Positions 2,853 through 42,979 of a stretch of 44,679 bases of DNA are shown here, piece by piece; position 1 is the first letter of the stretch; each line of letters opens with the position of its first letter. The notes under the pieces were generated by a model, which made no database searches, had not been told where the DNA came from, and saw only the letters and a program-made list of their open reading frames with translations. The DNA lies in sequence record PQ314493; one strand, 5' to 3'. Origin of the DNA: Escherichia phage vB_EcoS_UALMA_PCEc3. The translations under genes were made by a program, and so were the position numbers.

Positions 2853-2929
2853 GCTCTGCTAGCTCAACAGGACAGCAGCAACGACCTTCTAAGTCGTAGG
2901 TTACTGGTTCGAATCCAGTGCGGAGCGCC
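2853..2929 (+). tRNA. tRNA-Arg (anticodon TCT)
   Basis: 7-bp acceptor stem GCTCTGC/GCGGAGC, U8, D-loop with GG, anticodon stem acgac/gtcgt with loop cTTCTaa, T-arm actgg-TTCGAAT-ccagt, discriminator G and encoded CCA. Confidence 0.8.
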
Positions 2930-2936
2930 AAATTAA

Positions 2937-3038
2937 CGTCGCGTTGCTAATGTTGGCCAAAGGGTGGAGCTTATACCTCCATAAAGCAATCTCCAGATAA
3001 GAGATGTAACGCAGGTTCGATTCCTGCCGCGACGACCA
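2937..3038 (+). tRNA. atypical tRNA-like RNA (~99 nt + CCA; anticodon unresolved, candidates GAT or TAT)
   Basis: perfect 7-bp acceptor pairing cgtcgcg/cgcgacg, canonical T-arm gcagg-TTCGATT-cctgc, encoded CCA; ~25 extra nt relative to a standard tRNA. Confidence 0.35.
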
Positions 3039-8849: not shown

Positions 8850-8865
8850 TAGTTAAGACTAAACT

Positions 8866-8888
8866 AACCCGCTTCGGCGGGTTTTTTA
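8866..8888 (+). terminator. rho-independent terminator
   Basis: hairpin cccgcttcggcggg (UUCG-type loop) + T-run. Confidence 0.65.
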
Positions 8889-8906
8889 TTGCCTATCATC
8901 TCATCA

Positions 8907-9917: not shown

Positions 9918-9923
9918 TAAATC

Positions 9924-9946
9924 GCCCTCTTCGGAGGGCTTTTTTA
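9924..9946 (+). terminator. rho-independent terminator
   Basis: hairpin gccctcttcggagggc + T-run. Confidence 0.65.
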
Positions 9947-10009
9947 CGTCTGTACCAAATGGATTTGTTCGGTTATAATCACTCAATCAGATAAACAAAG
10001 GAGACAAAA

Positions 10010-11066: not shown

Positions 11067-11496
11067 AAATATTGGAAGCGTGGCTACTTTTGAGAAATCT
11101 ATTGCCGACTGGATTAACAGAGCAGATAAGGGATTTGAAATTGTAGTCTCCAACACGGTTACCAAGACAGCCAACGCAATTGTGGACTTATCCCCGGTCG
11201 ATACTGGTAGGTTCAAGGCTAACTGGCAAATCACCGCAAACTCACCAGCTCAGCAATCACTGAATGAGTACGATCAGACTGGTGGGCAGACAAAAACATA
11301 TCTCGCCAGACAGGCTAGAGCTGTCGCTAACTCAAAAGCTACGAGTGTTATTTATATAACCAACCGACTTGATTACGCAGCAGATCTTGAGTACGGAGCT
11401 TCAAATCAGGCTCCAGCTGGCGTTTTGGGAGTGGTGCAAGCAAGGTTGGGCAGGTATTTCCAGGAAGCGGTAGAGGAGGCTCGTCGTGCAATATGA
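11059..11496 (+). CDS. HK97 gp10-like tail completion/neck protein
   Basis: motif SPVDTGRFKANW resembles HK97 gp10-family signature; ATG 11059 overlaps upstream stop (track ORF 10879..11496). Confidence 0.5.
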   Translation: MARNIGSVATFEKSIADWINRADKGFEIVVSNTVTKTANAIVDLSPVDTGRFKANWQITANSPAQQSLNEYDQTGGQTKTYLARQARAVANSKATSVIYITNRLDYAADLEYGASNQAPAGVLGVVQARLGRYFQEAVEEARRAI

Positions 11497-11887
11497 ATTA
11501 TCATTAGCAGCAAGGAAATTCGTCGACGATTTGTTGGTAAATGAATTTCCGGTCAGGTATCCAGTTGCGTGGGAGAATTGTAAGTTTACCCCCCCTGCCG
11601 ATGGCTCAATATGGCTTAAGTACGACTACACGGAAGTTGACACCGTAACTTACGGATTAAGCAGGAAGTGCAAATACTACGTAGGCATGGTGCAGGTTTC
11701 TGTTTTCTTCAGTCCTGGAACTGGAATTGACAGGCCCAGACAGATCGCTAATCAATTGGCAGAATCTATCGTTGATGGTACAATGCTTGACAGCGGGACC
11801 ATTTATGAGTCTGGAATTGTTAACCCCGTTATCAAATCCAAGTCTGGGTGGTTTATCCCGGTTCGTTTTTATGTTCGTCTAGACTAA
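11486..11887 (+). CDS. tail terminator-like protein (putative)
   Basis: 133 aa between gp10-like and major tail protein. Confidence 0.4.
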   Translation: MQYELSLAARKFVDDLLVNEFPVRYPVAWENCKFTPPADGSIWLKYDYTEVDTVTYGLSRKCKYYVGMVQVSVFFSPGTGIDRPRQIANQLAESIVDGTMLDSGTIYESGIVNPVIKSKSGWFIPVRFYVRLD

Positions 11888-11902: not shown

Positions 11903-12559
11903 ATGGCTCATTTATCAAACGGCACCCAGGTGTTTGTAGAAGGCTCTCGCGGAACTGCAATTGACGTAACTGCAATTTCCAACGCAGCTACCCCTGTTTT
12001 AACTGTATCTGACGCATCCGGCGTGGCTGAGGGTGATTACCTGCTTTTCACCTCCTCAGCCTCTACGCTTCTGGCTGACAAGCAAGTTCGCGTAACCGCA
12101 GTCTCTGGCACCTCGGTAACTGTTGAGGGTATTGATACCTCAAGCACTACCAAATTCCCTGCTGGTTTAACTGGTGAGGTTGTCAAGATTACTTCATGGT
12201 TCGAAGTTCCGTGCGTTCAGGACGTATCTACTGACGGCGGCGAGCAGCAGTTCGTTAACTTCCAGTGTCTTTCTGATGACCGTGAACAGCAGATTCCGAC
12301 TTATAAATCTGCCGTAACAAACACCTTTACCTTTGCTCACGAGTACACCAACCCGGTTTATCCGGTTCTGCGTAACTACGATGAGTCTGGCCAGGTTGTT
12401 GCGATTCGCCTGTTCGTACCTCGCGCTCAGGAAATGCGCTTGCAGTCAGGCACTATCGCTTTCAACGACACTCCTACCATTGGTGTTAACGAAATCGAAA
12501 CGGTATCCATCGCAGTATCCATTCGTGGTCGACTGTCCTCTGTGGCAGCTGAAGTTTAA
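11903..12559 (+). CDS. major tail protein (putative)
   Basis: 218 aa, RBS aaaggaaaaa, strong terminator downstream; position before chaperones and tape measure. Confidence 0.55.
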   Translation: MAHLSNGTQVFVEGSRGTAIDVTAISNAATPVLTVSDASGVAEGDYLLFTSSASTLLADKQVRVTAVSGTSVTVEGIDTSSTTKFPAGLTGEVVKITSWFEVPCVQDVSTDGGEQQFVNFQCLSDDREQQIPTYKSAVTNTFTFAHEYTNPVYPVLRNYDESGQVVAIRLFVPRAQEMRLQSGTIAFNDTPTIGVNEIETVSIAVSIRGRLSSVAAEV

Positions 12560-12565
12560 AATACA

Positions 12566-12588
12566 AACCCTCTTCGGAGGGTTTTTTA
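12566..12588 (+). terminator. rho-independent terminator
   Basis: hairpin ccctcttcggaggg + T-run. Confidence 0.65.
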
Positions 12589-12590
12589 TT

Positions 12591-12613
12591 GCATAGCATT
12601 TTTTGCTAAAGAT
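12591..12613 (+). promoter_or_regulatory. degenerate box copy; -10 TATAGT ~12631-12636
   Basis: gcatagcattttttgctaaag. Confidence 0.45.
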
Positions 12614-12669
12614 ATTATTAAACTTTGCTGTATAGTTATCTCATCGAAACGAAATGAGAGACTAAAGAA

Positions 12670-12918
12670 ATGAATAACGCTAAAAACATCATCAAGCTTG
12701 CTGCGGTTCTGGTTGCTTTTTATGCAGTAGTTCAGATTGTCAACCCAACTGGTGAGGCTGATGCCAATAGCAAGGCAAACAAATATACTGTTGAATTTGC
12801 TAAGGCTGAGCGAGAATGTCAGGAGCTTGTAGGTGGCAAAGTTGACCAAATCATGAAATACGGCAAAGAGGTTTGTAAGGACTCGGCTGCTAAGATTGCA
12901 AAAGAAAACACTAAGTAA
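12670..12918 (+). CDS. small secreted Cys-containing protein (moron-like)
   Basis: N-terminal signal-peptide-like segment (MNNAKNIIKLAAVLVAFYAVVQIV, then ADA); own degenerate box cassette; inserted in tail module. Confidence 0.45.
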   Translation: MNNAKNIIKLAAVLVAFYAVVQIVNPTGEADANSKANKYTVEFAKAERECQELVGGKVDQIMKYGKEVCKDSAAKIAKENTK

Positions 12919-12956
12919 TAGAATACATACTCACAAACAATAAGAGGATTAACAAA

Positions 12957-13271
12957 ATGGCAAAGTTCAAACTTTCACTGGCAGCACTCCCAGACTTTAA
13001 GCTACCAGTAAAATTTAAGCTGGCTAACGACCAGGATGTAGAGGTTATCTTTACAGTCAAGCATAAGAAAACATCTGAGTTGCAGGAGCTGCTTAGCAAG
13101 GAAGACTTGAGCACAAAAGAGCTTATTATGGCAATTGCTTCTGATTGGGATCTGGAAGAAGAATACAACGAAGATAACGTTAATGAGTTCTCAGACCTTT
13201 TCCCGGCCTCAACTGTTGCACTGACAACTGCTTACATGCAAGCGCTTGCTGGTCAGCGAGTAAAAAACTAA
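12957..13271 (+). CDS. tail assembly chaperone (gpG-like)
   Basis: 104 aa between major tail protein and tape measure; ends with slippery A_AAA_AAC. Confidence 0.6.
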   Translation: MAKFKLSLAALPDFKLPVKFKLANDQDVEVIFTVKHKKTSELQELLSKEDLSTKELIMAIASDWDLEEEYNEDNVNEFSDLFPASTVALTTAYMQALAGQRVKN

Positions 13272-13591
13272 AACGAGCGGTGTATCTACAGTACCAGTCA
13301 GAGCCAACTGATGCAGAACTGGAAGCTATTGGGATGCGCCGCTCTGATTACGAAGATGAAGAGCCTGAGGTTTTACACTTCGACGACAACATGATGAAAG
13401 CGTGGGACATTTATTGTTCAATGGCTACGCAGTGGAGAGTCGGAGCTAATGGAGCAACAGGACTTGATTACAACGTGCTAAATTTCCTCTTTAGAGTGTA
13501 TAATGTTTCTGAAGAAGAATTGGTGCTCAGCGATTTACGCATCCTTGAAGCTAAGGCTCTAGAGATGATGGATAACCTGAGAAAAAAATAA
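12957..13591 (+). CDS. tail assembly chaperone G-T fusion via -1 programmed frameshift (predicted)
   Basis: slippery heptamer AAAAAAC at 13262-13268; -1 frame is open from slip site through track ORF 13280..13591. Confidence 0.5.
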
Positions 13592-13626
13592 CCCGCTTCG
13601 GCGGGTTTTCTATTATGGAGGCTTAG

Positions 13627-16605
13627 ATGGCAACAAATGAATTAGCCGGAATCACACTAGCCGTAGACGTATCTCAGGTAGACAGGGGTACGCAATCCCT
13701 ACAGAAGTTCAGACAGGCCAACCAGCAAGCCGCTTCCGGTATTAGTGAGTTCGTCAATGCTGAGCAGGTTGCGAAAAACCAGGCTAGAGATACCGCTCAC
13801 GCACTTGCTGAGCAACAAGCATCTTTAGCTAAATTGCAAACTGCTATTGATCCAACTGCGGCAAAGTTCCGTAAGCTGCAAGAGGCGGCTGTAGGACTTG
13901 ATAAGGCATTTGCTGCTGGCGTAGTTCCTGATGAGGAGTTTTTCCGCTTAGGCGAGGCTCTTGAAACGCAGAATGCAAAGCTCGCCCGTTCACGTGCGGC
14001 GCTAACTGAAGAGGGTAGGGCGGCAGCTCAATCCGCAAAGGATAAGGCAAAGGCAAAGGCTGAATCTGATAGATTCATTGCTTCACTTGAGCGACAGGCT
14101 CAAGCGGCAACATTGACGCGTGAGGAGTACTTAAAGTTACAGGCTGCTCAGCTTGGTGTAAGCTCTCAGGCAGCACCTATTATTGACAGAATCGCAGAGG
14201 CTTCAGAGAGGGCTAATGTTCAATTAGCAAACCAAAGTAAGGCGTTTCTGAGATCAGGATTAAGTGCCGGTCAATACAGGAATGCTATCAGGATGCTTCC
14301 GGCACAGATAACTGATATTACCACGTCATTAGCTAGCGGCATGCCTGTTTGGCTTATTGCAATCCAGCAGGGTGGGCAGATTAAGGATAGCTTTGGCGGT
14401 ATTGGCAACACATTTAGATTCGCGCTTGCAGCCTTAAATCCATTCAATGTTGCTGTTGGTGTTTTGGGTGGGGCGCTTGTAGCTCTTGGTGTTGGTGCGG
14501 CTCAGGCTGAAAGTGAATTCAGGGCGTTAAACTCCGCAATTGCGTTCTCCAACAACTCTACAATAGCATCAATCTCGCAGGTTAGAGAGTTGGTTAGTTC
14601 TGTTTCTGATGCAACAGGAGCCACCAGGGGACTTGTGACTAGCATCGCAACGAGCCTTGTTGAGCAAGGAAACCTTACGCTGACGCAGATTGACAAGATT
14701 ACTAAATCGACCGCAAGATGGGCACAGCTGACAGGTAAGGATGCGAAGGAGATTACTGGTTACTATAACCAGATTGCAAGCGACCCAATACAGGGATTGG
14801 TTGATTTGGATAAGCGCTTTAACTTCCTCACGCAGGGGCAGTTGACGACAATCGAAAACCTGAGAAAGACAAAGGGAGAGGTTGAGGCCGTAACTGCTGC
14901 TATTGATATATTTAGCAAATCACAGGAAGCGAACCTTAACGATATTGCGGCCCAACTTACTCCTCTTGAATTGGCGTGGAATGACTTCAGGAAGTACATA
15001 TCTGATGTATGGGATGCAATTAGTCGCAGAACGGTTGGGGCGCTAAACCTGTTTGTTGATGTAATAGCTGGAACAATTGAACAGATTAAGGTCTTCATTA
15101 ATCAAGGTGACGTGCTGATCGGTGAGTTTGTAATTAGTGCGACACAAGCGCTGCAAAACATCCCTGGCCTTGGTGATACTGGGAATAATGTAATCTCTGA
15201 GCAGCAGAAGATTATCGATGCAGCCAAGAAGCAAAACCTTGAGTTAGAAAAGTCTATCAGAGAGCGAGATGCCAGAATCAGAGAAGGAGAGCTTGGTTAC
15301 GTTACTCGCAGGGAAAATCAGAATACGAATGAGCAATCGGGTACTGATGAGGAATTTGCGAAAAGGAGGAAGGCACTTAAGGACGAGCTTGACGCGATCA
15401 AGAAGAACAGGAAAGAGGAGAATGGGAGGGTTAAGGAGCAAAGGGATTTAACAATAGGTTATGAATCTGGCGTTTTAGCACTTCAGGCTCAACTCAAAGT
15501 TCTTCAGGAAAATAGGGATATTGGCGCAGTAATAAGCAACGAGCGAAAGCAGTACCTTCAGGAGGAAGCCAAATTCAGGATTCTTGAGCAGAGGCAACTT
15601 GATGGATCAATAACCAAAGAGCAGGCAAGGCTTCTAATTGAAAAGGATAAAGTTCTTGAGTTGGCAAGGCAGAAGGCTGAGCTAGGTGATCAGATTGTCT
15701 TGCAGGAGCGCGCCAATAAGTTAGCTGAAGATAACCGTAAGAAGATTCTTCAGATTAACAATGAGGCAAGCAATATTAATTTGGGTGCTGGCCTGTCTTC
15801 TCGGGAACAGCAGAGAGCCAAAGAGATTCAGGCTCTTCAGTCCAATCAGGTTAATGCTGGTGGTTCTGTTGATGATGTTGATTTCCAGCAATTACTGGAA
15901 GCAAGAAAGGAATATTACAAGCAGGAGGATAATCTTAGATCAGACTGGCAATCCGGTGTAACATCCACTCTCGCCGACTTGACAGAGAAGTACACTGACT
16001 ACAACCAGATTGCTAAGGACTTAACCGTTGCGGCATTCGATGGAATTACAGAACAGATTACAAACCTTGTAACCACTGGTGAGACTAATTTCAGAGATTT
16101 CACAGCAAGCATCCTCAAAATGATTGCGAAGATTGCAACTCAGTTACTTTTGGTTAAGGCTATAGAATCAACATTAACTAGTTTTGGCGGTGGGGGAGGT
16201 AATGCGTTTGGCTCTTTTGCATCTGCTATAGGCTTTGCTGGTGGCGGCTATACTGGTGATGGTGGGAAGTATCAGCCAGCAGGAACGGTGCACCGCGGTG
16301 AGTTTGTATTCACAAAAGAAGCGACAAGCAGAATTGGCGTGAAAAACCTTTACGCGCTGATGAAGGGTTATGCGAATGGCGGCGCTGTTGGTGGTCCTTC
16401 CGGTTATGCGAATGGTGGTTTGGTTTCTGGTGGAACTGATGTTAATGTTAGCGGCATCACTGTTAACGTAAACTCAGGTGTAGGTAGCGACCCAGAGCAA
16501 GCTAAGGCATTGCAGAACGGCGTTAAAGCTATCGTAGCGGAAGAGATTGCTCAATCATTCCAGCAAGGCGGAAAAGCTTACCAGTACCTGCGAGGATTCA
16601 ACTAA
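13627..16605 (+). CDS. tape measure protein
   Basis: 992 aa, coiled-coil-rich with Gly-rich C-terminal region; position after chaperones. Confidence 0.8.
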   Translation: MATNELAGITLAVDVSQVDRGTQSLQKFRQANQQAASGISEFVNAEQVAKNQARDTAHALAEQQASLAKLQTAIDPTAAKFRKLQEAAVGLDKAFAAGVVPDEEFFRLGEALETQNAKLARSRAALTEEGRAAAQSAKDKAKAKAESDRFIASLERQAQAATLTREEYLKLQAAQLGVSSQAAPIIDRIAEASERANVQLANQSKAFLRSGLSAGQYRNAIRMLPAQITDITTSLASGMPVWLIAIQQGGQIKDSFGGIGNTFRFALAALNPFNVAVGVLGGALVALGVGAAQAESEFRALNSAIAFSNNSTIASISQVRELVSSVSDATGATRGLVTSIATSLVEQGNLTLTQIDKITKSTARWAQLTGKDAKEITGYYNQIASDPIQGLVDLDKRFNFLTQGQLTTIENLRKTKGEVEAVTAAIDIFSKSQEANLNDIAAQLTPLELAWNDFRKYISDVWDAISRRTVGALNLFVDVIAGTIEQIKVFINQGDVLIGEFVISATQALQNIPGLGDTGNNVISEQQKIIDAAKKQNLELEKSIRERDARIREGELGYVTRRENQNTNEQSGTDEEFAKRRKALKDELDAIKKNRKEENGRVKEQRDLTIGYESGVLALQAQLKVLQENRDIGAVISNERKQYLQEEAKFRILEQRQLDGSITKEQARLLIEKDKVLELARQKAELGDQIVLQERANKLAEDNRKKILQINNEASNINLGAGLSSREQQRAKEIQALQSNQVNAGGSVDDVDFQQLLEARKEYYKQEDNLRSDWQSGVTSTLADLTEKYTDYNQIAKDLTVAAFDGITEQITNLVTTGETNFRDFTASILKMIAKIATQLLLVKAIESTLTSFGGGGGNAFGSFASAIGFAGGGYTGDGGKYQPAGTVHRGEFVFTKEATSRIGVKNLYALMKGYANGGAVGGPSGYANGGLVSGGTDVNVSGITVNVNSGVGSDPEQAKALQNGVKAIVAEEIAQSFQQGGKAYQYLRGFN

Positions 16606-22605: not shown

Positions 22606-23565
22606 GTAGAAGTTTGGGATAAATGGAAGTGCCATTGATATGTTCGTGTCGAAAGGAAACTGAGCGCCAGTCTGAGTTGAGTAGTTACCTATTACAGAAC
22701 CAGGAACAGCCCTAACAGAGCCTCCAGACATGCAAACCCCCTTGTACCTTAAGTTGTTATAACCTCCAGTAACTCTAGTAGTGGCGCCGCATCTAAGAAG
22801 CGGGAAGAATCCACCATTTATTGACTGGTATCCATTATTGATCTGAATGAATCCACCAAGAACAAATGGGCGGCGAACACTTGAAAAAACAATCTGACCA
22901 GAGCTATTTGACATTGTGAGTCCAGGCCCGGCCGGTGGGGGTTCATTCCTGAATATCACCAGCTGAACATAAGTGCTTGCCGCAACATCATCTGTACCTC
23001 CGTAGGTTATATCCCTACACCATATTGTTGATCCATCTGATTCAAGTGATACGTTTGGATTATCCCACTTGCCGAATGGTATGCCGCTAACTGGTAGTGA
23101 TGCTGATCCGTTAACCTGAATACCACCAACCCATGCCGCAGACATTAGTCTTGAGTTGCTTGATATTGCCAGAAAGTCAGTTGAATTCTCAACAAGTATT
23201 CCAGGACTTGATGAAGATGAAGCTGGTAGTATCTCAAAGCAGTTCCCAGTAAAGTCAATTATTCGACCCTTGGCTCCGTTGAAGTTACTAAGTGTTATCC
23301 TGCCAGTTCCGTCATTAACCTTTTGGAATCCGTTCATATAATAAACTTCAGGTACAACATCGTAAGCATCAACGTGGACTGCCTTCGTTGGTAGGCAGAA
23401 AGCCGTAGAGCCAGGTGACATTATCAATCCAAAATCCCACGAACTTGCCGGAGTTGAAAGCCCATTGGTGTTTATTGAACCGGTCACTGCTGGTGCCCTT
23501 AATCCCGCAGTAATCTCCATTGCCGGCCTTCCATCATTCAAGTCTATCAGAATACCCTGAGGCAT
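22603..23565 (-). CDS. Gly/Ser/Thr-rich protein, possible receptor-binding/tail-associated protein
   Basis: ATG at 23565 after RBS aaggag, TAATG overlap with upstream lipoprotein gene; function is inference from context. Confidence 0.35.
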   Translation of the reverse strand: MPQGILIDLNDGRPAMEITAGLRAPAVTGSINTNGLSTPASSWDFGLIMSPGSTAFCLPTKAVHVDAYDVVPEVYYMNGFQKVNDGTGRITLSNFNGAKGRIIDFTGNCFEILPASSSSSPGILVENSTDFLAISSNSRLMSAAWVGGIQVNGSASLPVSGIPFGKWDNPNVSLESDGSTIWCRDITYGGTDDVAASTYVQLVIFRNEPPPAGPGLTMSNSSGQIVFSSVRRPFVLGGFIQINNGYQSINGGFFPLLRCGATTRVTGGYNNLRYKGVCMSGGSVRAVPGSVIGNYSTQTGAQFPFDTNISMALPFIPNFY

Positions 23566-23810
23566 TATTTCCACTCCTTACTTCCGTGATCTGCAACTGA
23601 GCCACCGTAACCTCCTCCAGCCTTGCTTTCAATTCCGGCGTAACGAATATCTACATCACCAGCAGGAACTACTGCGCCACCCTTCCATTTAGCAACGCAC
23701 ACGCCGTTTGCTTGCGTTGCGCACCAACCATCAGGGCGAGGACCAGAGGAACAACCTACCATCATGATTGCTGTCGCCGCGATGATTGAAAGTTTGATTA
23801 AGTTAGTCAT
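23565..23810 (-). CDS. Cor/Llp-like lipoprotein (putative superinfection exclusion)
   Basis: signal peptide with lipobox-like MVGC followed by SS; 81 aa; location next to tail fiber genes as for cor/llp. Confidence 0.5.
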
Positions 23811-23874: not shown

Positions 23875-23895
23875 GTTTAGCAATTAGTGCTATTC
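23875..23895 (-). promoter_or_regulatory. palindromic box copy (minus orientation) upstream of Cor-like gene
   Basis: minus-sense gaatagcactaattgctaaac; -10-like TACTAT and leader ccatcgaaacgaaac follow. Confidence 0.55.
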
Positions 23896-24299: not shown

Positions 24300-24530
24300 A
24301 CATTAAAATATCTATATATATCAACCTTTTACTCTTATTATTATTATTATATATATTATTATGTATATCGTGTAACTACTTCTATAGAGTGTTCCGGTTA
24401 TAATTTTAATATCATGTGGATTTATACAGTATATAGCAACCAACATAGCAACGCACCATCCGCAATAAATGATATACACGATATACACGATGGTTACATT
24501 GAGCTATAGCTGGGCTTGGATGCCAAGAAG
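24300..24530. repeat. AT-rich intergenic repeat region A (TTA-repeat tract, GTTACGC-type iterons, AGCTATAGCT palindrome)
   Basis: shares ~40-nt and ~30-nt blocks with region 42660-42885. Confidence 0.5.
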
Positions 24531-24671
24531 CGTAACAGGTGCTAATGTCCACACGTAATTACAATGATTCACGCGTAAGTTGAATCAACGATTGGTAAAA
24601 CCAATTGGACTTGTTACGGTGTCGAATATATAGTTAACCCATAGAAAGCAAGCAACCAGAGAGATATAGAA

Positions 24672-30936: not shown

Positions 30937-31410
30937 TTACTCTTTAGCTTTTCGTGCTGCTTCGTTAGCCGCCTTAATCTTGCGCCAGGAGCGACACTCT
31001 GGCTTGGTTGCTAGCTCCGCCTCAGTAACCACGCGCAGCATGTGACGCTTTTTGCAGCGCAGGGTTAGAGGCTTTCCGTTGCCATCGAATTGCAGATCTG
31101 GTCGGCAGAATGTAGCGCGAAAACCTTTTCCATTTCGCTTATAGTAGTTGTGCGACAACTGAGCGCCACGCGCAGAAATCATCCCACGCTTAAACCATTC
31201 TTCTACAGCCTGAGGTGTCACCTTTAACTGCTTTGCGATATTTGCCTTTGTGCCGAAGAAATCAAGAACAATCTCTAGCCGCGAGCGTAGCCCGGCTCTT
31301 ACTTCATCTTTTAAAACATAGTAGCCTGAAGGTCGTTTACGTTGCTTTTTGTCTTCGGTGCGGATGGTTCCGTTATTGCCGTTAATGGTTCGCTTGTCAA
31401 CTGCACTCAT
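30937..31410 (-). CDS. HTH DNA-binding protein (putative transcriptional regulator)
   Basis: HTH-like segment NIAKQLKVTPQAVEEWFKRG; basic; first gene of minus-strand operon. Confidence 0.5.
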   Translation of the reverse strand: MSAVDKRTINGNNGTIRTEDKKQRKRPSGYYVLKDEVRAGLRSRLEIVLDFFGTKANIAKQLKVTPQAVEEWFKRGMISARGAQLSHNYYKRNGKGFRATFCRPDLQFDGNGKPLTLRCKKRHMLRVVTEAELATKPECRSWRKIKAANEAARKAKE

Positions 31411-37024: not shown

Positions 37025-37581
37025 AAATGACTAAATTATTTATCCTTAATGGCCCCGCTGGAGTTGGCAAGGACACTATAGCGGATATCATGGTTGAGAC
37101 TGGTGTAGCCAAAGAAAAGGTATCATTCAAGTCACCAATTTTTAACGTTGCAAAAGGAATGCTATCAAGCGATGAATTTGATGGATTCATCAAGAATTAC
37201 GACAATAGAGACTATAAGGAATCACCTCATGGATTTCTTGGAGGTATGACAGTTCGTGAATTTATGATTTGGATTAGCGAGTCTGTAATGAAGCCAGTCT
37301 TTGGTGATGATATTTTCGGTAAAAGGCTAGCCCAGTCACTTGGTTATGGTTGCTACATTTGCGCTGATGGTGGATTTGCTAGCGAGATTAAGCCACTGAT
37401 CTACGCTGGTGTTGAGGTCACGTTAATCAGATTGCATAGGGCAGGGTACACATTTGATGGCGATAGTCGCTCATACATTCACGGGGTGTGCGCAAGAGAA
37501 ATTGATGTTCGTGTTGTTGATTGTGATATTGATGGAACATCAGCATTTGTAAGGCACGTAATAAATAGCACGAATTGCTAA
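37021..37581 (+). CDS. P-loop nucleotide/nucleoside kinase (putative)
   Basis: Walker A NGPAGVGKDT; ATG 37021 overlaps upstream stop (track start TTG 37003); C-terminus NSTNC encoded by box. Confidence 0.55.
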   Translation: MKMTKLFILNGPAGVGKDTIADIMVETGVAKEKVSFKSPIFNVAKGMLSSDEFDGFIKNYDNRDYKESPHGFLGGMTVREFMIWISESVMKPVFGDDIFGKRLAQSLGYGCYICADGGFASEIKPLIYAGVEVTLIRLHRAGYTFDGDSRSYIHGVCAREIDVRVVDCDIDGTSAFVRHVINSTNC

Positions 37582-42659: not shown

Positions 42660-42885
42660 GCCTAATATATATATATATCTTCTTTCTATTATTATTATTA
42701 TTATTAATATTATTGTATGTAAGTCATGTAACAGGGGTCCTGGCGATATCTATATGTTTTTTCCTATCAGTTATAGCCGAGGCTATAATTTAGGGTATGG
42801 TGGGGGTGTTTTGGGGATGTTTGCCTCGTTACACGCACGACACGCTACTCACATTGAGCTATAGCTGGGCTGGCATGCCATTTCG
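42660..42885. repeat. AT-rich intergenic repeat region B (paralogous to 24300-24530)
   Basis: shared acattgagctatagctgggc block and (tta)n tract; multiple cgtaacg/gttacgc copies nearby. Confidence 0.5.
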
Positions 42886-42979
42886 CGTAACGACCCCCAA
42901 AAGTTACCAAGAATTACACTTGACTACACGTGTAAGTCGGGATATTATGGACTCAACTTAAACGAGAGGAGTGATAGAG

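Follow-up and report, generated by a model that had tools for sequence, protein, structure and literature searches.

The gene orf82 of Escherichia phage vB_EcoS_UALMA_PCEc3 (sequence record PQ314493) is with high probability an exported accessory cargo, carried in a swap slot between the genes for the major tail protein and a tail assembly chaperone. On balance, we favor the explanation that the envelope of the infected cell is where this exported cargo acts. A more specific role in superinfection exclusion or entry blocking is a tentative proposal drawn by analogy, which we consider possible rather than probable. The whole 44,679-bp stretch analyzed (hereafter the window) matches GenBank PP134917.1 ("Pseudomonas phage PsgS01F") at 100% identity in rotated reverse-complement orientation. 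Its closest relatives, at 90–94% nucleotide identity, are E. coli siphophages of the Drexlerviridae/Braunvirinae, by name the Rtp-like Guelphvirus and Veterinaerplatzvirus, CEB_EC3a, JeanPiccard, IME253, MSK, and DTL. The slot and its flanks contain the following features.

11903–12559, plus strand: major tail protein gene, left flank of the slot (phrog_584, E 1.9e-87; same annotation in PP134917.1)
12565–12584, plus strand: intrinsic terminator hairpin AAACCCTCTTCGGAGGGTTT and T run, directly 3' of the major tail gene
12594–12608, plus strand: box palindrome TAGCATTTTTTGCTA of the slot, putative site of a Cro-like regulator (repeat families D3 and D10)
12631–12636, plus strand: −10 hexamer TATAGT, exactly 22 nt past the box (cassette scan; TAT invariant in the slot alignment)
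12637–12669, plus strand: transcribed leader, with the conserved CATCGAAACGA at 12642–12652 and a Shine-Dalgarno-like GAGAG at 12656–12660
12670–12918, plus strand: orf82 coding sequence, ATG start, 82 amino acids and stop, MNNAKNIIKLAAVLVAFYAVVQIVNPTGEADANSKANKYTVEFAKAERECQELVGGKVDQIMKYGKEVCKDSAAKIAKENTK (PHROG 22925, function unknown)
12670–12765, plus strand: predicted Sec signal peptide, residues 1–32 (sequence and hydropathy)
12766–12915, plus strand: predicted exported 50-residue helical domain, 5.6 kDa, isoelectric point 9.0
12896–12924, plus strand: sigma-70-like chaperone promoter, TTGCAA at 12896–12901, 17 nt, TAGAAT at 12919–12924, overlapping the last codons and stop of orf82
12957–13271, plus strand: tail assembly chaperone G, right flank of the slot (phrog_569 and phrog_17368)

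A preliminary description had placed a promoter cassette and a small secreted-protein gene at 12591–12918, and every element it described is present there. Alignment to the empty site of the Braunvirinae phage SU57, in which the same terminator is followed by 82 nt and then the chaperone, puts the inserted block at ~12593–12918. The synteny comparison that the description had suggested as a check found the slot missing from the other Drexlerviridae lineages compared, empty in SU57, and occupied by a different gene in Rtp. In the slot-less lineages (Rogunavirinae phiEB49, Klebsiella phage vB_Kpn_K50, Tlsvirus Stevie, Tunavirus JMPW1, and Warwickvirus tonnikala) the chaperone starts ~70–115 nt after the major tail gene; the slot was thus absent in the Rogunavirinae, Tempevirinae, and Tunavirinae examined and in the Klebsiella relative. 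In Rtp, terminator, box cassette, leader, and start context are as in the window, but the cargo behind them is unrelated: rtp34, which encodes a predicted 128-amino acid lipoprotein with the textbook signal MKAIIAIMATLLLAGC/NSD and the lipobox LLAGC. Cargo of the rtp34 type, at 85–89% identity, also occurs in AugustePiccard, MM01, and RobRod40, and the cassette query was matched in full in AugustePiccard and MM01. TR3 and Rao1 have a third arrangement, in the order cassette, a 46-amino acid two-helix hydrophobic membrane open reading frame (ORF), and orf82. This ORF, MILIGMLTAFFYYATGLTFWVSLGAAIG.YFVSA.LALIVIALRNR, lies at 1342–1482 in Rao1 (locus L004), where it has no annotation, and at 1657–1797 in TR3 (locus L020); it weakly matches phrog_16572, whose function is unknown.

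Among 88 records whose major tail protein shares at least 80% identity with that of the window, 81 have orf82, five have cargo of the rtp34 type, and in at least one the slot is empty. ACG-M12 has tail terminator and major tail genes nearly identical to those of the window (synonymous substitutions per site, dS, of 0.01–0.1) but an orf82 that is only 50% identical (dS 1.7), which points to local allele exchange. No new slot state was found in IMG/VR by a protein-pattern scan (4 loci) or an exact-terminator scan (56 loci, eight of them Braunvirinae, all with known cargo types). The slot thus appears to be a Braunvirinae-specific insertion hot-spot between the major-tail terminator and the chaperone promoter, and the comparisons strongly suggest that orf82 is a cargo gene that the phage can do without, is exchanged horizontally, and brings along its own box promoter and leader.

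The slot cassette (12593–12670) is a member of a ~80-nt direct-repeat family (D1–D3) and has 60–71% identity to the other copies. The core of the family is the palindrome TAGCA-N5-TGCTA, with 23 occurrences in the window where 2.07 would be expected; none of 100 shuffled sequences reached 23. All cassettes follow one plan of palindrome, strict 22-nt spacing, −10 hexamer, and the shared leader TACC.CATCGAAACGA. A scan for this plan passed 17 sites, about 15 of them convincing.

259, 979, 1154, 1721, 5527, 12594, 25837, 34136, 37566, 43981, plus strand: box palindromes of cassettes
23892, 24209, 41119, 41550, minus strand: box palindromes of cassettes
31424, 36478, 44484: variant boxes
30937–31410, minus strand: Cro-like helix-turn-helix regulator, Rtp52 homolog, candidate box binder (PF14549 P22_Cro, E 3.9e-6; annotated "transcriptional regulator")

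The preliminary description had called the slot cassette degenerate. It is instead a full cassette with perfect palindrome arms, and it deviates only in the 5-nt spacer, which is TTTTT rather than CNAAT. The palindrome is also kept in the slots of Rtp, ACG-M12, ES, and TR3. The same description's proposal that the gene has its own promoter within the structural module agrees with the complete cassette, the −10 hexamer at fixed spacing, and their conservation across cargo types. The center of the slot palindrome falls at about −42 of the predicted start, which lies near 12643, and there is no usable −35 hexamer at 17–18 nt; the cassette therefore looks activator-dependent, of a class II activator-like kind. 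Behind this cassette type lie the lysis genes, erf, the gene that precedes the portal gene, an Rtp45-like lipoprotein gene, and small ORFs without an assigned function, and the scan indicates that the cassette is the general promoter type of the phage. The P22_Cro match of the regulator is weak and falls below Pfam's cutoff. In the Rtp genome paper of 2006, Wietzorrek et al. are said to have proposed inverted repeats of this sort as sites of the Rtp52 regulator. This proposal is what links box and regulator, and the Cro-like protein is the likely binder of the box palindromes.

The leader was predicted to be unstructured (minimum free energy −0.6 kcal/mol, z +1.44) and no Rfam family matched the region, so we rejected an RNA element there. 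A mini-ORF, ATG AGA GAC TAA, occupies 12654–12665 of the leader and ends 4 nt ahead of the orf82 start. Similar mini-ORFs (M-R-D or M-R-N, then stop) precede rtp34 in Rtp and orf82 in ACG-M12 and ES. They may be chance, given the overlap with the Shine-Dalgarno-like GAGAG, or may be a coupling device. A second, upstream sigma-70-like pair, TTGCAT (12589–12594) and TATTAT (12613–12618) separated by 18 nt, was also rejected, since its −10 is not conserved in relatives; the pair is probably chance. Partial matches to the box and leader were found in Klebsiella phage VAC2 and some large Enterobacter phages.

The terminator at 12565–12584 is kept in all Braunvirinae compared, including SU57 with its empty slot. 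It is one of a set of near-copies that follow several structural genes (8863–8899, 9920–9956, 12563–12599, and 13587–13623, of the form ACCC[GT]CTTCGG[CA]GGGTTTT), and its 24-nt core was found in 56 IMG/VR contigs, only eight of which have a Braunvirinae-type major tail gene adjoining. At the other end of the slot, the predicted chaperone promoter has the −10 hexamer TATAAT at the equivalent place in SU57, TR3, and ES, preceded by TG in SU57, and a promoter is annotated at this position in CEB_EC3a. The chaperones thus own a promoter with or without cargo, which suggests that the box cassette belongs to the cargo and travels with it. There is no terminator-like site on the plus strand from 12585 to 13590, and so none between orf82 and the chaperones; cassette transcripts should therefore read into the chaperone genes.

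orf82 was found at the same position in 81 phage records, always annotated as hypothetical. Across 11 genomes its start, stop, and frame are maintained at dS up to ~2. The ratio of nonsynonymous (dN) to synonymous substitutions is 0.05–0.27 (0.23 overall), compared with 0.09 for the tail terminator gene, 0.10 for the major tail gene, and 0.07 for the chaperone, while its dN is about three times that of these neighboring structural genes. The alignments indicate that orf82 is a real gene under purifying selection whose protein changes about three times faster than those of its neighbors. GC content differs little, at 38.0% for the insert, 41.4% for orf82, 44.4% for the genome, 49.9% for the major tail gene, and 42.5% for the chaperone. 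An antisense ORF at 12586–12849 was rejected because it is interrupted in several relatives and not conserved. Two residues set this allele apart: codon 49 (12814–12816), before the invariant Cys50, encodes Glu, where close alleles nearly all have Ala and divergent alleles have Ser, His, Tyr, or Ile; and residue 4 is Ala, where nearly all other alleles have Val.

These substitution rates bear on two other readings of the slot. In one, the selected element is the promoter cassette itself, re-initiating transcription past the strong major-tail terminator, with orf82 a largely neutral passenger or leader ORF. The lack of a terminator before the chaperones fits this, as does the greater conservation of cassette and leader, compared with the cargoes, across cargo types. 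We consider it most improbable, however, given the purifying selection on orf82, the invariant cysteines, N-P, Y39, and F43 of its product, the conserved promoter that the chaperones already have, the viability of SU57 without the cassette, and the constant presence of a cargo wherever the slot holds a cassette. In the other, the orf82 product is an accessory in tail assembly or a minor component of the virion, as its place between the major tail gene and the chaperones, with which it is probably co-transcribed for want of a terminator, would suggest. To this we assign next to no likelihood: orf82 is missing from four other Drexlerviridae lineages and from SU57, all with the same flanking genes; an unrelated lipoprotein takes its place in Rtp; the product has export features; and its dN is well above that of the structural genes around it.

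The predicted signal peptide of the orf82 product consists of an n-region with K5 and K9, a 15-residue hydrophobic core (L10–V24), and the c-region NPTGEADA, ending in the putative cleavage motif A30-D31-A32/N33. N25-P26 and N33 are invariant. Among the alleles position −3 is A, T, S, or E, position −1 is A or rarely T or S, and N-S follows the site. Alleles of 50–60% identity keep small residues at both −3 and −1 as well as the N-S, among them that of ACG-M12, which has an otherwise different extreme N-terminus. The overall succession of K5/K9, hydrophobic core, N-P-T-G, and small-x-small/N-S is conserved over alleles ranging from 50 to 100% identity. Acidic residues past the hydrophobic segment lead us to expect an N-in, C-out orientation. 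The two cysteines of the exported domain, C50 (12817–12819) and C69 (12874–12876), are invariant in every homolog aligned, as are Y39 and F43. The signal-peptide-like N-terminus and the two mature-part cysteines of an 82-amino acid protein, as first described, are therefore both present. No lipobox (L-[AS]-[GA]-C) was found in orf82, whose first cysteine is residue 50.

The genome paper of MSK, whose orf82 homolog is 96% identical, reports that SignalP was positive for just two genes of that phage, the cor-like lipoprotein gene MSK_000046 and MSK_000011, the latter also flagged by TMHMM. With the major tail protein at MSK_000010 and the 992-amino acid tape measure at MSK_000014, gene order identifies MSK_000011 as the presumed orf82 homolog. 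Judging from these sequence features, the orf82 product is almost certainly exported to the cell envelope.

AlphaFold2 predicted three helices for the full-length protein, at a predicted local distance difference test score (pLDDT) of 65, and a single long helix for the mature part (pLDDT 83), with both cysteines on the hydrophobic face of the predicted helices. Read along the sequence, the hydrophobic positions mirror one another about mature residue 27.5 (11/44, 14/41, 18/37, 22/33, and 26/29 in mature numbering). Such symmetry would suit an antiparallel dimer joined by two intermolecular disulfides, with Cys18–Cys37' pairs.

Database searches assigned no function to orf82. There were no families at E ≤ 10 in Pfam or among the PADLOC defense models, and the sole match in PHROGs was phrog_22925, of unknown function. 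A word-indexed search of 5.8 billion clustered proteins returned only 38 close relatives, and an exhaustive hidden Markov model (HMM) search of 1.84 billion representative proteins returned only orf82's own cluster; neither search contained a relative outside ~45-kb contigs of the Braunvirinae type. The orf82 profile had no matches to PDB sequences at E ≤ 10, and Foldseek found none in PDB for the full-length AlphaFold model, which is of low confidence. The family therefore appears confined to Braunvirinae. It was previously represented by hypothetical annotations and a passing SignalP mention in one paper.

Under the explanation that we favor, the Sec system would insert the orf82 pre-protein N-in/C-out and signal peptidase I would most probably cut after A32, freeing a ~5.6-kDa basic, all-helical peptide into the periplasm, where the two invariant cysteines would probably be oxidized. 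The peptide would then act on the envelope of the infected cell and not in the virion. The mechanism we prefer, by analogy with HK97 gp15, T4 Imm, and T4 Spackle, is a receptor-independent, post-adsorption block that would protect the infection and complement the phage's own receptor-masking Rtp45-like lipoprotein, whose gene has the same type of promoter.

23565–23810, minus strand: Rtp45-like superinfection-exclusion lipoprotein gene (78% identical to Rtp45; cassette box at 23878–23892, minus strand)

Rtp45 was shown structurally to bind LptDE and to block binding of the receptor-binding protein (PMC12685063), and the homolog in this genome has a lipobox. Genes of the Rtp45 type were found in 384 records, including SU57, with its empty slot, and the Rogunavirinae phage C119; the Rogunavirinae phage examined for the slot, phiEB49, lacks it. 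Near-identical orf82 genes occur in JeanPiccard, for which resistance was mapped to LptD, and in IME253, which uses the FepA receptor. A receptor-specific, Cor-like role was rejected because orf82 is common to LptD- and FepA-using phages and is uncoupled from genes of the Rtp45 type. Since all slot cargoes are envelope-targeted, the phage has its own Rtp45-like receptor masking, and orf82 does not track receptor type, the evidence points to a receptor-independent step rather than to receptor masking or virion assembly. The alternative cargoes, a lipoprotein and a two-helix membrane peptide, together with the shared promoter type of the Rtp45-like gene, make the host-interaction or exclusion role put forward in the preliminary description plausible.

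In a different envelope role, the orf82 product would regulate lysis timing as a T4 RI-like periplasmic antiholin, either binding the periplasmic part of the holin or sensing superinfection. The predicted architecture of orf82, an N-terminal signal or anchor followed by a small helical periplasmic domain, resembles that of RI, and the lysis genes are under the same cassette type (box at 37566). We nevertheless find an antiholin very unlikely, since orf82 has no similarity to solved structures at E ≤ 10 or to any Pfam family, lies ~25 kb from the lysis cassette, and is replaced in Rtp by a lipoprotein with no obvious link to a holin, and since SU57 naturally lacks it yet has normal infection kinetics according to its description paper. 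We infer that exclusion or entry blocking ranks above lysis timing, and we give a structural role very little weight. Our literature search found neither a transcriptome nor a genuine virion proteome for Braunvirinae; the "proteome" of the MSK paper is SDS-PAGE with in-silico mass matching.

Several observations weigh against the envelope-effector explanation. No sequence or fold relative that would give orf82 a function emerged from Pfam, PADLOC, PDB, or the HMM searches. Export is predicted, and MSK_000011 was equated with orf82 by gene order. A simple helical hairpin at G55–G56 would not pair C50 with C69. The cassette also drives many unrelated genes (small ORFs, the pre-portal gene, Erf, and the lysis genes), which makes a shared promoter type weak evidence for shared function, and without a terminator after orf82 the cassette may partly serve to boost chaperone and tape-measure transcription. 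Finally, residues 1–32 are more conserved between allele groups (72–75%) than the exported part (44–50%), which is unusual for a disposable signal peptide and would be compatible with a membrane anchor that stays uncleaved. With a mean Kyte-Doolittle hydropathy of 2.1, the best stretch of 19 residues would suffice for a membrane helix, so the segment could stay in place.

Left uncleaved, the N-terminal segment would make the orf82 product a bitopic inner-membrane protein (N-in, C-out) that works in the membrane, as HK97 gp15 or T4 Imm do, and that could, for example, block channel formation by an incoming tape measure. Besides the conservation and hydropathy of the segment, the TMHMM helix in MSK_000011, the presumed MSK homolog, fits this reading, and orf82 adjoins the tape-measure chaperones as HK97 gene 15 does. 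The strongly hydrophobic core, however, spans only 12–15 residues, SignalP gave a secretory signal peptide for MSK_000011, and the invariant N-P and the conserved small-x-small/N-S motif are retained even in the ACG-M12 allele with its rewritten N-terminus. We therefore regard an uncleaved anchor as unlikely, and keep the cleaved, periplasmic peptide as the favored form of the product.

The closest parallel to this proposal is HK97 gp15, which excludes phages without blocking the outer-membrane receptor, in a manner that depends on the incoming tail (PMC3594210). Like orf82, it is a small envelope protein encoded in the tail operon beside the tape-measure chaperones, absent from related phages, and equipped with its own promoter (PMC3594210). 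gp15, the product of the original moron, is a YebO-like inner-membrane protein to which orf82 has no sequence similarity (no Pfam family at E ≤ 10, and only its own cluster in the HMM search). HK97 is temperate and expresses gp15 from the prophage with its own terminator, whereas the orf82 phage is virulent and orf82 has no terminator; orf82 also has a probable cleavage site and a Cys pair, and its exclusion activity is a proposal by analogy.

Rtp45, Cor, and T5 Llp are likewise small and exported; they come from T1-, T5-, and Rtp-like siphophages and work from the periplasmic side, and the Rtp45 homolog of this genome uses the same cassette type as orf82. In contrast to them, orf82 has no lipobox and no family similarity, lies far from the receptor-binding locus, and occurs in phages with different receptors, uncoupled from genes of the Rtp45 type. 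The rtp34 gene of Rtp shares the slot, terminator, cassette, leader, and start context of orf82 and is also envelope-targeted, but its sequence is unrelated, it has the lipoprotein signal LLAGC rather than a signal-peptidase-I motif, and it is found in five records rather than 81. T4 Spackle (gp61.3), Imm, and RI are small proteins that mediate exclusion or lysis inhibition and combine a signal or anchor at the N-terminus with a small periplasmic domain. As products of a virulent phage they resemble predicted orf82 in this layout; orf82 differs in its genomic context and has no similarity to solved structures and no fold match.

The preliminary description had also called orf82 a moron. Drexlerviridae are virulent phages, and no integrase or CI-type repressor is present among the 78 annotated features of PP134917.1; the prophage-expression sense of the term thus does not apply. 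Measured by the moron criteria of PMC3594210, orf82 appears as extra DNA relative to its relatives and has its own predicted promoter, but lacks the own terminator and the prophage expression; for GC content, also part of that definition, the difference from the surroundings is small. It is accordingly a moron-like phage accessory envelope protein in the tail module, with these two classical features absent. The same paper names lom as a moron product (PMC3594210). lambda lom and bor are, like orf82, extra envelope-protein genes within the late or tail regions of siphophages; they are prophage-expressed host-fitness factors of temperate phages, whereas orf82 is much smaller and belongs to a virulent phage. 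An additional feature of the present system is that the slot comes with a promoter, exchanges envelope-targeted cargoes, and exists in nature without cargo.

A wider reading is that the slot is a dedicated, promoter-equipped docking site for swapped envelope effectors (the secreted two-Cys helical peptide, the outer-membrane lipoprotein, and the two-helix membrane peptide), with orf82 founding a new periplasmic, probably disulfide-linked, receptor-independent exclusion or entry-block family beside Rtp45. We offer this as a speculative and rather doubtful extension. The only characterized exclusion factor of the Rtp-like Braunvirinae is the LptDE-binding lipoprotein Rtp45 (PMC12685063), and a second, receptor-independent envelope factor, if real, would explain patterns of cross-resistance between related phages and provide a ~50-residue tool for studying those steps of siphophage DNA delivery that take place in the periplasm. 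Rtp-like Braunvirinae repeatedly contaminate E. coli fermentations and laboratories, and they are under study as therapeutic candidates as well. The slot has natural variants on otherwise similar backbones (empty in SU57, orf82 in JeanPiccard and MSK, a lipoprotein in Rtp and AugustePiccard), and the conserved cassette could serve as an insertion and expression site for engineering Rtp-like phages. Should orf82 turn out to have no phenotype, it would be one more orphan accessory gene.

Beyond the slot, the tail module has the following elements.

11486–11887: tail terminator gene (tail module gene order)
13280–13591: chaperone frameshift partner (tail module gene order)
13590–13607, plus strand: next terminator-like hairpin downstream of orf82
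13627–16605: tape measure gene (tail module gene order)

The host labels attached to these phages are inconsistent. The record identical to the window is labeled Pseudomonas phage PsgS01F, with P. syringae pv. garcae as host, yet its sequence is that of an E. coli Braunvirinae-like phage, and the genome so labeled encodes a protein 78% identical to Rtp45, which binds enterobacterial LptDE. The P. syringae assignment may reflect contamination or a carried-along coliphage. Other odd labels among the relatives are "Campylobacter phage A110b" and a "Nitratidesulfovibrio liaohensis" protein on a 46.7-kb contig.

Elsewhere in the window, a ~230-nt repeat is present in two copies of 77% identity, at 24307–24536 and 42664–42891, with a (TA)n(ATT)n tract and the conserved core CACATTGAGCTATAGCTGGGCT.G.ATGCCA. 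Both copies lie near annotated switches in transcription direction. In the side region 2853–3035, ARAGORN found a single tRNA, Arg-TCT at 2853–2930, and did not confirm the adjoining 99-nt "tRNA-Ile" annotated in GenBank.

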